Assembly (NCBI GenBank): GCA_964544635.1
Contig: CAZJCK010000002.1
Coordinates: 29,388 to 93,387 of the forward strand
Origin: an uncultured Ignavibacteriales bacterium
Lineage (GTDB): Bacteria > Zixibacteria > MSB-5A5 > GN15 > FEB-12
Direction of reading: 5' to 3'
Length of the DNA stretch: 64,000 nt
Numbering within the stretch: position 1 is the first letter of the stretch; each line of letters begins with the position of its first letter. The notes under the pieces are model-generated. The model was not told where the DNA came from. It did no database searches and saw nothing but the letters and a program-made list of their open reading frames with translations. Position numbers and translations under genes: made by a program. Below are positions 55,978-61,838 of this stretch, piece after piece.

Positions 55978-58101
55978 ATGCAACTGAACCTCAAGCTCGG
56001 CCACAAGCTTATGGCCCTGGTTGCCATCGTACTGATCGTCTCAGTCGCCGGTGTCGCCACGGTCAGCGTGCTGCAGTCGGACAAACACCTCACCGATCTG
56101 GCCAAGACCGACCTTGAACATCTCGCCCGAATGTCCAAAAAGATCTGCGAAATGAACGCCACCGAACGGTTGGAAAAGGTCAAGTCCGATCTCGGCGCAA
56201 CCCTCGAGATCTTCCATGATCGCGGCGGCGATGCCGTTGTCATCGAGGACGGTAAGATGATCATGGACGCCGACGGTGACCGCTGGGAGCTCAACGACGA
56301 CACCACGCTGGTGGACCGTATCACCAGCCTGACCGGCGCCTACTGCACGATCTTCCAGAAAGATGGTACCAGCGCCCGGCGGATCGCCACCAGTGTGGTG
56401 AAGGAAGACGGCAAACGGGCTGTCGGAACCTATATATCCGACGCCGTCTATCAGCGGGTGTTCCTTGAAGGAAAGGACTTCTTCGGCCGAGCCTGGGTGG
56501 TCAATGCCTGGTATGTCACGGCATATGTCCCGATCCGCGATATCCACGGTGAGGTTGTCGGCTCATACTTTGTCGGTGTACCGGAACGGTCGAACAATCT
56601 GCGCAATGCGCTTCTGTCCCAGACAGTCGGTGAGACCGGCTACGCCTACACCATCAACTCCAAGGGCATACTGCAGATTCACCCGGCCAGTGAAGGCGCC
56701 GATATAAGCAACTACGACTTCATCAAAGAAATGATCACCAAGGGCCCGAAGCTGGGCGAAGATGACGTCGGCTGGATCGTCTATCCGTGGAAGAACCCGG
56801 GCGATCCACATGAGCGCGAAAAAATCACGGCCTATATGTACCTTGAGGAATGGGACTGGGTGATTGCCGTAGGCAGCTATCTGGAGGAGTTCACGGCGCC
56901 CGTTGCGTCGGTCCGCAACAACATACTGATAATCGGTGTCATCTGCCTCTTGATCGGCCTCGCGCTGGCCTGGGGATTGAGCCGCAAAATCACCGGTCCG
57001 ATCCAGCAGATTGTCACCGCCGCCAAACGCATCTCGGGCGGCGATGTCAATACAACAGTGAATATAAAGTCCCGCGACGAAATTGGCGAACTGGCGACGA
57101 CCTTTAATGAAATGACGGCGTACCTGAAGGAAGCCGCCGGCGCCGCCGAGTCGATCGCCCGCAATGACCTGACTGTCCGCATAACGCCACGCTCCGAGAG
57201 CGATACCTTTGGTCAAGCCTTCAAGACAATGATCGACAACCTGTCGCATGTCGTCATGTCGCTCTCGGACAACGCCCGCGACCTGGCCTCGGCAGCGGCC
57301 GAAGTAGCGTCTTCCTCGGAGCAGATGTCGCGCGGCGCCAGCCAGCAATCATCACAGGTAGAGCAGGTCTCGACCGCCATGCACGAAATGTCGTCGACCA
57401 TCACCGAATCCTCGCAGAATGCCGGGCAGGCAACCGACGCCAGCCAGAATGCTTCGCAGTATGCCGGTGAAGGCGGCCAGATTGTCGAGCAGACGATCCA
57501 GGGGATGCAGCGCATCGCCGAGGTCGTCCGTGAATCATCTGAAAGCATCGGCGAGCTGTCGAAGTCGGCCGAGAAGATTGGCGAGATCATCGTGGTCATC
57601 GACGATATCGCCGACCAGACCAACCTGCTGGCGCTCAACGCCGCCATCGAAGCCGCCCGCGCCGGTGAGCAGGGCCGCGGCTTTGCCGTCGTTGCCGACG
57701 AAGTCCGCAAACTGGCCGAACGCACGGCTCGCGCCACCGGAGAAATTACCAGCATGATCACGGCGGTGCAGGAAAAAACCAACTCGTCGGTCAGCTCCAT
57801 GCAGCGCGGCATCGATGAGGTTGACGGCGGACGCAAGCTGGCTGACTCCGCCGGCGCCAGCCTGAATCAGATTGTCACCGTATCGGAGCAACTGCTCGAC
57901 ATGATGCGGCAGATCGCCTCGGCTACCGAGGAACAGTCGGTCACCGCCGAACAGATTGGCAAGTCGATCACCGAGATTGCCAATGTGACGCAGGAATCGG
58001 CTGCCGGCGCCCAGCAGGCTGCCCAGGCCGCCGAAGGACTGAATCGCCAGGCCGAATCCCTCAAGGAGATCGTCTCCCAGTTCCGCCTGAGCAACGCCTG
58101 A
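55978..58101 (+). CDS. Methyl-accepting chemotaxis protein with Cache-type periplasmic sensor, HAMP and MA domains
   Basis: Two TM helices flank a roughly 290-aa domain with Cache-like motifs ([33 protein letters not shown]). HAMP is indicated by [13 protein letters not shown]. The conserved signalling hairpin is [40 protein letters not shown]. Confidence 0.9.
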
Positions 58102-58127
58102 CAACAGCCTCATCTTTCTAATCTCGC

Positions 58128-58161
58128 GAGCCGGAGAACCGACGTTCTTCGGCTCTTTTTT
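58128..58161 (+). terminator. Rho-independent terminator after the MCP gene
   Basis: GAGCCGGAGAAC-cgac-GTTCTTCGGCTC followed by TTTTTT. Confidence 0.8.
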
Positions 58162-58165
58162 GTCC

Positions 58166-58193
58166 TTGACCTAATAGTATTACTTTGTATTAT
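58166..58193 (+). promoter_or_regulatory. Candidate sigma70 promoter (TTGACC-16 nt-TATTAT) with embedded palindrome TAATAGTATTA and a GTATTA direct repeat at 10-bp phase
   Basis: TTGACC at 58166-58171 and TATTAT at 58188-58193. The palindrome is at 58172-58182, and GTATTA occurs at 58177-58182 and 58187-58192. Confidence 0.45.
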
Positions 58194-58223
58194 GACTACC
58201 GAAATGACAGGAGAACACATGAT

Positions 58224-58484
58224 ATGAAAAAGAAGTCTGAGATAGTCACGTTCAAGGCCGACGCCAGCCTTATGGAGGCGCTGCAGGGTGTGGAGAATCG
58301 CTCCAGTTTCATCCGGGCGGCAGTGCTGGCGGCGCTCGACTCGACCTGCCCGCTGTGCAAAGGGTCGGGAATCCTCACACCGAATCAGCGCAAACACTGG
58401 AACGAGTTCAGCCATACCCACTCCATCCGCGAGTGTACCGACTGCAACGAGTTCCATTTGGTGTGTAATGATGACGAAGCTTGA
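58224..58484 (+). CDS. Small ribbon-helix-helix (CopG/NikR-like) protein with C-terminal Cys/His-rich zinc-ribbon-like tail; candidate metal-responsive regulator of the znu-like operon
   Basis: ATG at 58224 with a GGAGAA SD. MKKKSEIVTFKADASLMEALQGVENRSSFIRAAVLAAL fits a beta-strand plus two helices. The tail is CPLCKGSG...HWNEFSHTHSIRECTDCNEFHLVC. The 3' end overlaps the znuA start. Confidence 0.6.
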   Translation: MKKKSEIVTFKADASLMEALQGVENRSSFIRAAVLAALDSTCPLCKGSGILTPNQRKHWNEFSHTHSIRECTDCNEFHLVCNDDEA

Positions 58485-59376
58485 GCCACGTATGCGCCTC
58501 GCTGTCGGAGTCGTGTTCATACTCTGCCTGTGCTCGATTGTGACGGTCCAAGGCGCGGAGGTCAGGGTGACGGTGCCGATTGCGCCGTACGGCTGGATGC
58601 TTGGCGAACTGACCGGCGATACGGCGGCGGTCTCGGTGCTGATCCCGCCCGGCCAGTCGCCGCACACCTTTGATCCGACCCCACGGCAGATCGTACGGCT
58701 CGGGCAATCCGACCTTTATTTCTGGATCGGCCTGCCGTTTGAAGAAAAGTTGCGGCCGATGCTCGAGGAGCAGTTTTCAAACCTTCGCATAGTCGATCTG
58801 CGGCAGGGGATCACGCTGAATCAGGCCGCGGCCCACCATGATGATGATGGCGCCAGTCGCGACGTCCACGCCGAGTCGATCGATCCCCATATCTGGATGT
58901 CGCCGCAACGGTTGCGCCGGCAGGCAGCGACCGCGTGCCAGGCCCTCGTCGACGCCTCTCCTGCCGACAGCATGCGGTTTCATGACAACCGTCGACGTGT
59001 ACAGGCGCAACTCGATTCGCTGGATGCGTTCATACGGCAGCAACTGAGCAATCTACCGCACCGCACATTCTTCATACATCATCCGGCTCTCGGCTACCTG
59101 GCGGCCGATTATAATCTGACGCAGCGGTCTATTGAGTTTGAAGGTAAGGCGCCCACCGCCGGCATGCTGGCGGAACAGTTGCAGGGACTGACCGGCGATT
59201 CGACCAACACCCTGTTCATGGATCGCCAGAATGCGGGTCGCCAGATCCGGGACATGATGGAATCGCTGGGTATTCGAGTGGCTGCCATTGATCCGCTGGC
59301 CGGTAATTATATCGACAACATGCGTCGCATTACGGTCGAACTGCGGCGAGCGCTCTCGGCGGGGGAGGCAGAGTAG
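58468..59376 (+). CDS. znuA: Metal ABC transporter substrate-binding protein (ZnuA/TroA cluster A-I family)
   Basis: Signal peptide from the ATG at 58468. SPHTFDPTPRQ, DPHIWMSP and a short His/Asp loop (AAHHDDDGASRDVHAE). Confidence 0.8.
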   Translation: MMTKLEPRMRLAVGVVFILCLCSIVTVQGAEVRVTVPIAPYGWMLGELTGDTAAVSVLIPPGQSPHTFDPTPRQIVRLGQSDLYFWIGLPFEEKLRPMLEEQFSNLRIVDLRQGITLNQAAAHHDDDGASRDVHAESIDPHIWMSPQRLRRQAATACQALVDASPADSMRFHDNRRRVQAQLDSLDAFIRQQLSNLPHRTFFIHHPALGYLAADYNLTQRSIEFEGKAPTAGMLAEQLQGLTGDSTNTLFMDRQNAGRQIRDMMESLGIRVAAIDPLAGNYIDNMRRITVELRRALSAGEAE

Positions 59377-59381
59377 CAGCT

Positions 59382-60155
59382 ATGGCCGACCAGAAGACTT
59401 CAGGTCAGTCCGACGCCATGGTACTGCTGGACCGGGTATCGTTTTCGTACAACGACGAACCGGTGCTGACCGATGTGTCGTTGCGGGTGCAGCCACAGGA
59501 GTTCATCTGGATTGTCGGCCCCAACGGCGGTGGCAAGACTACCATGATGAAGCTGATCCTCGGACTGATAAGACCGCAGGCCGGTGAGATCCAGGTAATG
59601 GGCCGCGCGCCGTCGGAGGTACGTGCCGACATCGGCTACATGCCGCAATCAGTCGAACTTGACAGCCAGTTTCCCATCACCGTACTCGACATGGTGCTGC
59701 TTGGCCGCCTGCGTCCCGGTTTTCTGCCCCGCCTCTACCGGACAATCGATCGCGAGGCGGCGATGCAGGCGCTTGAGACGGTCGGCCTCGCCAACCGTGC
59801 CCGCGATCCGCTGCGGGAATTGTCCGGCGGCCAGCACCGTCGCATCCTCATCGCCCGTGCCCTCGCCTCGCAACCGAAACTGCTGCTGCTCGATGAACCA
59901 ACCGCCAACCTGGATGTGGAGGCGGAGCGAGAGTTGCATGATGTCATGCAGAAACTGACCGAAAATGTCACCGTCATTATGGTATCGCACGATCCCGCGT
60001 TCGCGTCGGATTTCGTCGAGCAGGTGGTGTGTGTCAACCGCACGGTCGGCATCCACCCGACCAGCACACTGAAGGAAGGCTCCCTCGATGAATTGTGGGG
60101 GGGCGGTCGCCGGATTATCCGCCACGACCAGCATATGCCGGACGGAGAAGGTTGA
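59382..60155 (+). CDS. znuC: Metal ABC transporter ATP-binding protein (ZnuC-like)
   Basis: GPNGGGKTT, LSGGQHRRILIARAL, LLLDEPTANLD. Confidence 0.85.
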   Translation: MADQKTSGQSDAMVLLDRVSFSYNDEPVLTDVSLRVQPQEFIWIVGPNGGGKTTMMKLILGLIRPQAGEIQVMGRAPSEVRADIGYMPQSVELDSQFPITVLDMVLLGRLRPGFLPRLYRTIDREAAMQALETVGLANRARDPLRELSGGQHRRILIARALASQPKLLLLDEPTANLDVEAERELHDVMQKLTENVTVIMVSHDPAFASDFVEQVVCVNRTVGIHPTSTLKEGSLDELWGGGRRIIRHDQHMPDGEG

Positions 60156-60991
60156 TGGAGTTTTTCGACGCCCTGTTCGAGCATGCCTTCCTGCAGCGAG
60201 CGGTATTGGCCGGGCTGTTGACCTCGATCGCCTGCGGCGTAATCGGAACGTGGGTAGTCTCGCGTCGGATCAGCTACCTGGCCGGGGGAGTCTCGCACTC
60301 GCTGCTGGGTGGTATCGGGGTGGCGCACTACCTGGCGGTTGCAGCCGGCCTGGCCTTCATACGGCCGATGTACGGCGCTATCGTCTTTGCCGTCGCGGCG
60401 GCAGTATTGATCGGCTTCGTTTCGCTGCGCATGCACCAGCGCGAAGATACGTTGATCAGCGCCTTGTGGGCGGTCGGTATGGCGATCGGCGTCATCTTTA
60501 TGTACCAGACCCCCGGTTACGCTCAGGACCTGATGACTTACCTGTTCGGCAACATCCTGCTGGTATCGTCGAGCGACCTGCAGTTAATCGCCATTCTCGA
60601 CGCTTTCATACTCCTCGCCGGTGTGCTCTATTTCAATAAGTTCCTGGCAGTCTGCTTCGACCAGCCGTTCGCCCGTTCGCGCGGCGTACACGTTGAGTTC
60701 TACTATATCTTCCTGCTGGTGCTGGTTGGACTGACGGTCGTGCTGCTGGTCGAGGTGGTGGGCATCATCATGGTGATCGCACTGATAACACTCCCGGCCG
60801 CAATCGCCGGCATGTTTGCCATGCGGCTGGGCCAGATGATGCTCTGGGCAAGCATCCTGGCTATGCTGTTTACGTTCGTCGGCCTGTTCGTCAGCTACAC
60901 CCCAAATCTACCGGCCGGCGCCACTATAATACTGGTCACCGGCGTCGGCTACCTGCTGGCGATGATCATCCGCTCCCTGCGGCCGCAATAA
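60155..60991 (+). CDS. znuB: Metal ABC transporter permease (ZnuB-like, ABC-3 family)
   Basis: The ATG at 60155 overlaps the znuC stop (TGATG). MEFFDALFEHAFLQRAVLAGLL and about 8 TM helices. Confidence 0.85.
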   Translation: MEFFDALFEHAFLQRAVLAGLLTSIACGVIGTWVVSRRISYLAGGVSHSLLGGIGVAHYLAVAAGLAFIRPMYGAIVFAVAAAVLIGFVSLRMHQREDTLISALWAVGMAIGVIFMYQTPGYAQDLMTYLFGNILLVSSSDLQLIAILDAFILLAGVLYFNKFLAVCFDQPFARSRGVHVEFYYIFLLVLVGLTVVLLVEVVGIIMVIALITLPAAIAGMFAMRLGQMMLWASILAMLFTFVGLFVSYTPNLPAGATIILVTGVGYLLAMIIRSLRPQ

Positions 60992-60994
60992 GAA

Positions 60995-61019
60995 AAGGCC
61001 GGTCGAATCAACCGGCCTT
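60995..61019. terminator. Hairpin between convergent znuB and the redoxin gene (bidirectional terminator candidate)
   Basis: AAGGCCGGT-cgaatca-ACCGGCCTT, flanked by A/T-rich sequence on both sides. Confidence 0.6.
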
Positions 61020-61046
61020 ATAATTATATTCCAGGACTCTCCGGCA

Positions 61047-61838
61047 TCATTCCCAGGCGAGCTTCTGAATTTCTTCCACCACCTGCGCCGGTTCGGCGCG
61101 CTTGCGGTAGTCGGGATCGATATACGCCCATGTAATCGTGCTGTCGGTATCAATGACATACGTCACCGCCAGCGGCAACTGGGTCGCGTAGGCCTCGGTA
61201 TTGTAAGCGCCAAGACGACCCTTGAATCGGTCGCCAAGTTCTCCAGGAAGCTCGTAGGCTACACCGTACTGCTTTGCAACCTCGTTGCCGACGTCACTGA
61301 GTACGATGTACCCAAGTTCATTCTGCTCCTGGGTCGACAGGGCGCTGTCGGGCAGTTCGGGTGAGATGGCGACGAGGCTGGCATTGGCTTCGTCAAAATA
61401 CGGAAGTACATGCTCCATCGCTTTCAGTTGCATGTTGCAGTAAGGGCACCAGCCGCCACGATACCACATGACCACCACCGGACCGTCGGCCAAAAGATCG
61501 GCCAGCGCGACCGAGTCGCCGTTGGCTTCCGGCAGTACGAACATGGGCGCAGTCTGCCCCGCTGTCAGGGCGGTCTGCATGACTTCAGAGGCAGCGACAT
61601 CGCGCACTCCCTGCTCGAACAAGTCGATCGTCTCCTGTGAGGCCGATTCCGTGAACTGCTGCTTGCGTTCATCGAGCGCTTTCTGCAGCGACGGTATGGA
61701 GTCGGCTGCCATCTGGTCGGTCATCGGTTCGGAATCGGTTTTCTGCGCGGTCTGTTGATCTCCGGTGCAGCCGATGACGGCAATCACCAGGAACAGGGCA
61801 ACGGCGGCTGTCAGAATGCGAAAACGGGTTACTTCCAT
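61047..61838 (-). CDS. Thioredoxin-fold redoxin (AhpC/TSA-like) lipoprotein
   Basis: Lipobox LVIAVIGC. Redox motif YRGGWCPYCNMQL. Confidence 0.75.
   Translation of the reverse strand: MEVTRFRILTAAVALFLVIAVIGCTGDQQTAQKTDSEPMTDQMAADSIPSLQKALDERKQQFTESASQETIDLFEQGVRDVAASEVMQTALTAGQTAPMFVLPEANGDSVALADLLADGPVVVMWYRGGWCPYCNMQLKAMEHVLPYFDEANASLVAISPELPDSALSTQEQNELGYIVLSDVGNEVAKQYGVAYELPGELGDRFKGRLGAYNTEAYATQLPLAVTYVIDTDSTITWAYIDPDYRKRAEPAQVVEEIQKLAWE

Follow-up and report, generated by a model that had tools for sequence, protein, structure and literature searches.

In bacteria the control of zinc uptake is attributed to Zur; the other regulator type known for this task is AdcR/ZitR, of the MarR family. 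The locus examined here raises the question of what controls a znuACB-like operon whose first gene encodes a protein of only 86 aa, proposed in an earlier note on this DNA to be an unconventional zinc sensor made of a ribbon-helix-helix (RHH) segment and a Cys/His-rich tail. The operon lies in the window (the whole stretch of DNA analysed, 64,000 nucleotides) and is composed as follows.

58128-58155, plus strand: intrinsic terminator of the upstream chemoreceptor gene (stem of 12 pairs, 7 of them GC, then TTTTTTGT)
58166-58193, plus strand: sigma-70-type promoter (TTGACC at 58166-58171, 16-nt spacer, TATTAT at 58188-58193; 10 of 12 consensus matches)
58224-58484, plus strand: regulator gene, from the ATG at 58224 to the stop at 58484, 86 aa by translation
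58468-59376, plus strand: gene for a ZnuA-like periplasmic metal-binding protein (PF01297, 186 bits) with a signal peptide and a short His/Asp loop
59382-60155, plus strand: gene for a ZnuC-like ABC ATPase (PF00005, 108 bits)
60095-60991, plus strand: open reading frame of a ZnuB-like ABC-3 permease (PF00950, 232 bits)
60995-61019, strand not assigned: bidirectional terminator-like hairpin closing the operon (11-pair stem on the minus strand)

The gene order is thus the 86-aa regulator followed by znuA-znuC-znuB, with a promoter at the front and terminators bounding the unit, and the open reading frame, the downstream Pfam matches, the promoter and the terminators all agree with the proposal that the 86-aa protein is encoded by the first gene of a znuABC-like operon. 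The promoter TTGACC-16-TATTAT was found where it had been placed; it is the sole promoter-like match within 57800-61400 and lies directly 3′ of the terminator at 58128-58155, which ends the upstream transcription unit and so isolates the promoter of the znu operon as its own. The sequence GGAGA is present at 58210-58214, 5′ of the 86-aa reading frame. For the ZnuC-like ATPase the best NCBIfam model was AztA (171 bits, below its cut-off). The true start of znuB is probably the ATG at 60155, overlapping the znuC stop. The 17-nt overlap attributed to the regulator gene and znuA depends on the start codon chosen: it exists if znuA starts at the ATG at 58468, but there is none if the ATG at 58492 is used. 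The closing hairpin also contains 5-pair stems on both strands, with a T-rich tail after each stem. The gene directly upstream of the operon (55978-58101, plus strand) encodes a methyl-accepting chemotaxis protein of 707 aa, which combines a Cache_3-Cache_2 sensor with HAMP and MCP signalling domains.

No Pfam or NCBIfam model reached its cut-off for the 86-aa protein, including PF01402 (CopG/RHH_1; 11.8 bits, against a gathering cut-off of 20.5). Two parts could nonetheless be delimited in it.

58236-58340, plus strand: RHH DNA-binding domain (residues ~5-39), delimited by an AF2 model, fold matches and conservation
58341-58469, plus strand: Cys/His zinc-ribbon-like domain (residues ~40-82), delimited by conservation, local profile similarity and the model

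The RHH-like segment EIVTFKADASLMEALQGVENRSSFIRAAVLAAL noticed previously is indeed part of the translation. The AF2 model of the whole protein, built on 87 homologues, had a pLDDT of 86; when it was structurally aligned with 48,161 PDB representatives, at least the top 30 chains were all RHH proteins, among them the PutA RHH domain, CopA(SO), omega, AmrZ, NikR and Arc (Z 4.1-4.6, rmsd ~2 Å, over residues 3-43). The NikR chains were 2bj1 (Z 4.3, rmsd 1.8, 39 residues aligned) and 1q5v (Z 4.1). The Z values are only modest because the RHH domain is tiny; the list of matches is nonetheless uniform. A Foldseek search of the whole model against the PDB gave nothing below E ~1. Residues F10, N25, S27, F29, I30 and R31 of this domain were observed to be invariant in all 121 homologues, while K11, D13 and R26 were each kept in 120. 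On the strength of the modelled fold, the protein is assigned to the RHH superfamily, outside the curated PF01402 model.

The tail had been credited with the motif CPLCKGSG, five Cys and five His. The CxxCxGxG motif and the five Cys (42, 45, 71, 74 and 81) are there, but the His residues number four (58, 64, 66 and 78). Residues C42, P43, C45, G47, G49, Q55, H58, H66, C71, C74 and C81 were invariant in the 121 homologues, with the ligand pattern CxxC...H...H...CxxC...C, and E76 was kept in 111 of them. When the C-terminal 48 residues were modelled alone (pLDDT 90.6), the tail appeared as a knuckle, a helix (53-62) and a beta-hairpin in which residues 66-70 pair with 77-81; H66 and C81 thus fall on two strands that pair with each other, next to the H58-bearing helix. 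A profile of the regulator family matched the knuckle and helix of anti-TRAP (3lcz; E 1.7e-4, over 26 residues only) and the zinc knuckle of DnaJ (1exk; E 3.6e-3). The Pfam model of the latter (DnaJ_CXXCXGXG, PF00684) scored 18.1 bits against a cut-off of 32.7, the protein having a single CxxCxGxG, and the anti-TRAP models PF15777 and NF058604 also stayed below their cut-offs (12.6 bits, for a cut-off of 32, and 10.8 bits, respectively). Foldseek comparison of the C-terminal domain alone with the PDB gave nothing below E ~1, anti-TRAP was absent from the results of the structure searches made with this domain, and these searches found no solved structure resembling it; the matches returned by VIA-align were winged-helix fragments with Z < 3 only, and were treated as noise. 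From the conserved pattern, C42, C45, C71 and C74 are inferred to form a Cys4 zinc knuckle, which by analogy with anti-TRAP and DnaJ may be purely structural. A second, His2Cys site formed by H58, H66 and C81 is possible; in the model it rests on strand pairing only, with no ligand distances.

A word-indexed search returned at least 218 proteins with ~60-90% identity to the regulator, none of them with a Pfam domain; the named ones carried CopG or RHH designations and came from Zixibacteria, Planctomycetes or Krumholzibacteria. When 1.84 billion representatives were searched exhaustively with HMMER, only 259 clusters matched, which marks the family as compact. The top match of the representative search (P0122, 3179 aa) was rejected as an unrelated repeat protein with C2H2-like motifs. 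None of the neighbours of the regulator in the protein atlas had a Pfam family, all being unnamed clusters or generic CopG ones, and no description of the family was found in the full-text literature searched; the CopG regulator of a Paracoccus zinc study has a context unrelated to the family described here. One relative (P0123, 185 aa) is a natural head-to-tail fusion of two whole copies of the regulator, which would form a single-chain dimer; such a tandem fusion is consistent with a dimeric unit.

When one genome per species was scanned, relatives were detected in 342 genomes. The best 80 of these belong to Zixibacteria, Planctomycetota, Ignavibacteria, Fibrobacterota, Spirochaetota, Hydrogenedentota, Eisenbacteria, Lentisphaerota, TA06 and GN15, and in ~65 of the 80 corresponding loci, spread over about ten phyla, znuA-znuC-znuB was observed directly downstream on the same strand. 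The consistent linkage of homologues to znu-type transporters, which the earlier note had named as a check on its proposal, is therefore borne out. One homologue, at locus L079, comes from a cultured bacterium, Lentisphaerota strain zth2. A distant sub-family of ~145 aa (loci L114-L193) shares the RHH domain, CPLCxGxG and CxxCG, and has a second Cys cluster (GGPxYCxxC...CxxCG). Its members are without C81, do not conserve H66 and never adjoin znuACB, which indicates that the link to znu belongs to the Cys5His2 form. This sub-family is common in soil and freshwater metagenomes, and 10 of its 26 long loci contain a divergently transcribed gene for an SBP_bac_5 protein of 940 aa.

Alignment of the regions upstream of the regulator genes uncovered a conserved site with the consensus G-GTAWTAC-NNN-GTAWTA-A/T, which in the window takes this form.

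58177-58193, strand not assigned: operator GTATTACTTTGTATTAT, i.e. GTATTAC-TTT-GTATTAT, lying over the promoter spacer and the -10 box

The pattern GTAWTACNNNGTAWTA occurred exactly in 54 of 81 upstream regions and with no more than one mismatch in 70 (about 0.05 in shuffles); in the 64-kb window it has a single match, without mismatch. Each GTAWTAC unit is 7 bp long and self-complementary, as would fit an RHH dimer with two-fold symmetry, and the centres of the two units are 10 bp apart, so that both lie on the same face of the DNA. The two GTATTA copies spaced by 10 bp to which attention had been drawn before (58177-58182 and 58187-58192) are thus real and belong to an operator conserved in 70 of 81 loci; a palindrome reported in the spacer (TAATAGTATTA, 58172-58182) also exists, but it is not conserved in the relatives. 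In these, column counts place the end of TTGAC(A) 5 nt before the operator and show that the second unit supplies the -10 box TAWTAW, with a spacing of 16 nt. Since the operator overlaps both the spacer and the -10 box, a protein bound to it would occlude the core promoter. In four near-identical spirochaete loci (L038:6001-7659, L054, L056 and L068) the regulator is followed by a GAF-HD protein and there is no znuACB; these loci have no GTAWTAC operator upstream, yet the DNA-reading strand of the regulator is unchanged in them.

Which protein would act at this site was addressed in the phylum to which the window belongs. The regulator gene is carried by 54 of 151 genomes, always as a single copy. 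The exact operator was observed in 50 of these 54, nearly always no more than a few hundred bases from the gene, and in 13 of the 97 genomes without the gene; a control with the reversed pattern matched 37 of the 151 genomes, indicating that the 13 matches are at chance level. In one genus lacking the gene (g19), operator matches fell inside an open reading frame or beside thymidylate synthase and are probably due to chance. Fur-family genes were present in 141 of the 151 genomes regardless of the regulator, so the operator is not a general Fur-family box. At locus L019 the regulator gene comes last and the operator lies 35 nt before znuA, while at L039 the regulator and znuACB are transcribed separately, with an operator before each; the site therefore stays with the znu promoter when the regulator sits elsewhere.

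The clearest sign that the RHH protein does the job of Zur came from a genome of the same taxonomic family as that of the window (G006; 100% complete), which has no regulator gene. Its znuACB operon is orthologous (identities of 53% for ZnuB, 52% for ZnuC and 31% for ZnuA) and is headed by a 132-aa Fur-family gene overlapping the znuA start (PF01475, 76 bits), preceded by TTGACA and, over the promoter, a Fur-type palindrome, ATGATAATGA-N4-TCATTATCAT (ATGATAATGAgaaaTCATTATCAT; gene and palindrome at L195:3290-3723). Both the RHH regulator and its operator are absent there; regulator and operator have thus been swapped together at one position. The earlier note had conceded that a canonical Zur box might explain the regulation; no Fur-type box was found in the promoter of the window, while G006, without the RHH gene, has both the box and a Fur-family gene. 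This clean displacement of Zur was observed in one genus only. A close orthologue of the Zur-like gene of G006 was found in just one other genome, and in G153 a Fur-family gene lies directly after znuB. Genomes with the regulator did not have fewer Fur-family genes than those without it (~2.0 versus 1.75, within the taxonomic family).

These results led to the following proposal. Two RHH dimers would sit on the two GTAWTAC units, on the same face of the DNA, and in doing so would block RNA polymerase and repress their own operon, regulator-znuA-znuC-znuB. In the tail, C42, C45, C71 and C74 would form the Cys4 knuckle, while H58, H66 and C81, possibly together with E76, would supply or complete a second site, an exchangeable one. 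With enough zinc present, the tail would carry metal and stabilise the DNA-binding assembly, probably through cooperativity between dimers; when zinc is scarce, the operon would be derepressed. A different protein would thus follow the same logic as Zur and NikR. No experiment underlies these steps: binding to DNA is deduced from comparisons of sequences and a predicted fold, and zinc binding, the identity of the sensing residues and the direction of the response are inferred likewise. That the protein is the repressor of the operon and acts at GTAWTAC-N3-GTAWTA is nevertheless regarded as very probable. That it senses zinc directly through its tail is considered likely, with less assurance, both zinc binding and the response to zinc being inferred. 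With similar assurance, we think it probable that these proteins constitute an undescribed family of small metalloregulators, made of an RHH domain and a Cys/His domain of ~45 residues, which represses znu by the zinc mechanism proposed. The fullest version, in which a zinc-ribbon-RHH protein has replaced Zur at znuACB in hundreds of species and zinc in a His2Cys site controls a dimer of dimers on tandem GTAWTAC units, is favoured only slightly.

Repression at this promoter could also be independent of metal: the protein might be an autorepressor that damps znuACB, with Cys and His residues that hold structural zinc only and a zinc response that comes from another factor or is absent at this operon. 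Many RHH proteins are simple autorepressors, and the CxxCxGxG knuckles of DnaJ and anti-TRAP, the two proteins to which the profile search found similarity, are structural. Another factor might also be at hand, the own genome of the window having three Fur-family genes. One of these lies beside feoB; a second, beside dps and a CzcA-type pump, scores best as PerR-like, and so does the third. There are no zinc genes near any of the three, but one of them might still act as a Zur. A metal-independent protein would, however, leave unaccounted for the invariance of H58, H66 and C81, which are outside the Cys4 pattern, the tie between the family and the zinc importer in about ten phyla, and the occupation by the regulator of the position that Zur holds in the orthologous operon of G006. 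The ~145-aa sub-family, in which the znu link, C81 and the conservation of H66 are all missing, points the same way, and this explanation is considered unlikely.

If the tail does sense a signal, zinc is not the only candidate. Thiols and His residues might respond to Mn, Fe, Ni, Co or Cd, or to oxidation of a zinc-thiolate centre, since centres of this kind can be redox switches (as in Hsp33 and RsrA), and ZnuA/TroA-type proteins include carriers of Mn and Fe. The binding protein of the window does not settle the matter by its family scores, as the NCBIfam models AztC, MntC and ZnuA all remained below their cut-offs. Its best solved relative, however, was the ZnuA of Synechocystis (1PQ4; E 5e-42), followed by YcdH, the ZnuA proteins of E. 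coli and Salmonella, and AdcA, all of them zinc proteins; the best of these relatives are specific for zinc, and the ZnuA of the window retains the three His ligand positions. Another contig of the same genome (C11:8051-10130) carries a second ABC-3 metal transporter, whose two permease genes are adjacent; no GTAWTAC operator accompanies it, and its regulator is presumably a different one. The existence of this separate system without the operator, together with the presence of a Fur-family protein as the displaced regulator at the head of the orthologous operon of G006, argues against a signal other than zinc, which is thought quite improbable, though the reading in which the tail senses zinc remains an inference.

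A last possibility, that the operator is bound by some other protein such as a Fur-family paralogue and that the 86-aa protein is a co-expressed zinc chaperone or buffer, would suit the near-palindromic nature of the 17-bp site, which in this resembles Fur-family boxes, and a DnaJ-like motif that recalls the zinc fingers of chaperones, but it is very hard to sustain given an N-terminal half with the RHH fold and conserved strand and N-R-S phosphate-anchor residues, an operator that occurs essentially only in gene-bearing genomes and beside the gene while Fur-family genes are in 141 of 151, and an actual Fur-type box in G006 that looks quite different.

With the 86-aa protein taken as the repressor of znuACB, the operator may serve to identify other genes under its control. 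A second operator-like site, GTAATACAATGTATTA, was found in the own genome of the window on contig C83:243-258 (locus L095:225-260), after TTGACT. The operon behind it encodes a TonB-dependent receptor with a CarboxypepD_reg domain and three secreted proteins, a His-containing one of 125 aa and two of 450 and 677 aa. In another genome (G108) a perfect operator (L111:1992-2008) precedes a TonB-dependent receptor of the same architecture, and at L028 a second operator precedes a small open reading frame and a porin-like protein. Judged from the sites alone, these three cases are plausible additional members of the regulon. The extra exact operators seen in five complete genomes, before PEPCK and in an intergenic stretch of the dsr region, were discarded; their number equals that of the reversed-pattern control, and they are probably due to chance. 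At six loci with both regulator and operator, znuACB is replaced by a conserved His/Cys-rich membrane protein of ~210 aa (L004:6287-6925, L037:6311-6964, L078:469-1167, L026:767-1564, L070 and L072). It has the invariant motifs HAPFT, HxxHV, PHxGHV and VWxPCC and His-rich ends; it had no Pfam match and its neighbours in the protein atlas were all unnamed. This protein is a candidate for a new family of metal permeases.

In a review of metal sensing in bacteria published in 2024 (PMC11672702), NikR is the only RHH metal sensor named, and the families given for uptake regulators are Fur, DtxR, NikR and Rrf2. If the reading favoured here is true, the present family would be a further family of uptake metalloregulators beside these four, with the smallest bacterial metal sensor known, and would account for the control of zinc import in Zixibacteria, Planctomycetota and other phyla that have been little studied, its carriers being hundreds of mostly uncultured bacteria. 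The pair formed by an 86-aa protein and a 17-bp site would also be a compact sensor and operator for biosensor design. The operator permits the prediction of regulons in metagenome-assembled genomes, and points to candidate new zinc-acquisition genes such as those for the His/Cys-rich membrane protein and the TonB-receptor operons.

The protein is not a member of NikR, Zur or AdcR, nor is it a Fur, MarR or ArsR protein. The likeness to NikR suggested in the earlier note holds for architecture and logic: both proteins have an N-terminal RHH domain and a C-terminal metal domain and are encoded beside an ABC importer of the metal sensed (by inference, in the case of the regulator). In NikR, which represses nikABCDE, the metal acts as a co-repressor. 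The likeness does not extend to the C-terminal domain or to the layout of the operator. NikR_C, with its ACT-like tetramerisation fold, gave no match to the regulator at E values up to 1, and is excluded because only ~45 residues follow the RHH domain, too few for it. The ligands of NikR are His3Cys in square-planar arrangement, those proposed here Cys5His2; the half-sites of NikR are ~16 bp apart, two helical turns, whereas here adjacent 7-mers have their centres 10 bp apart; and the partner transporter is nik in one case and znu in the other, for proteins of ~130-150 and 86 aa, respectively.

Zur, as seen in G006, has the same position in the operon and presumably the same task as the regulator, but it differs from it in fold (a winged helix and a dimerisation domain, compared with an RHH domain and a zinc ribbon) and in operator sequence, and PF01475, the model of the Fur family, gave no match to the 86-aa protein. 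Anti-TRAP (RtpA), a 53-aa Cys4 zinc protein, and the zinc-finger domain of DnaJ, in which repeated CxxCxGxG motifs make two zinc centres, share with the tail a CxxCxGxG knuckle followed by a short helix; neither is a transcription factor. The tail differs from both in having one CxxCxGxG, a plain CxxC and a fifth Cys, and in being fused to a DNA-binding domain. In its presumed mode of operator recognition the regulator would resemble Arc, Mnt, MetJ, omega and CopG-type proteins, whose short sub-sites, repeated or self-complementary, are spaced by about one turn of the helix and overlap the promoter; omega binds 7-bp heptads. To our knowledge none of these proteins has a Cys/His metal domain, and all but MetJ, which senses S-adenosylmethionine, sense no ligand. 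Set beside these systems, the regulator represents a new protein family doing a known kind of regulation.
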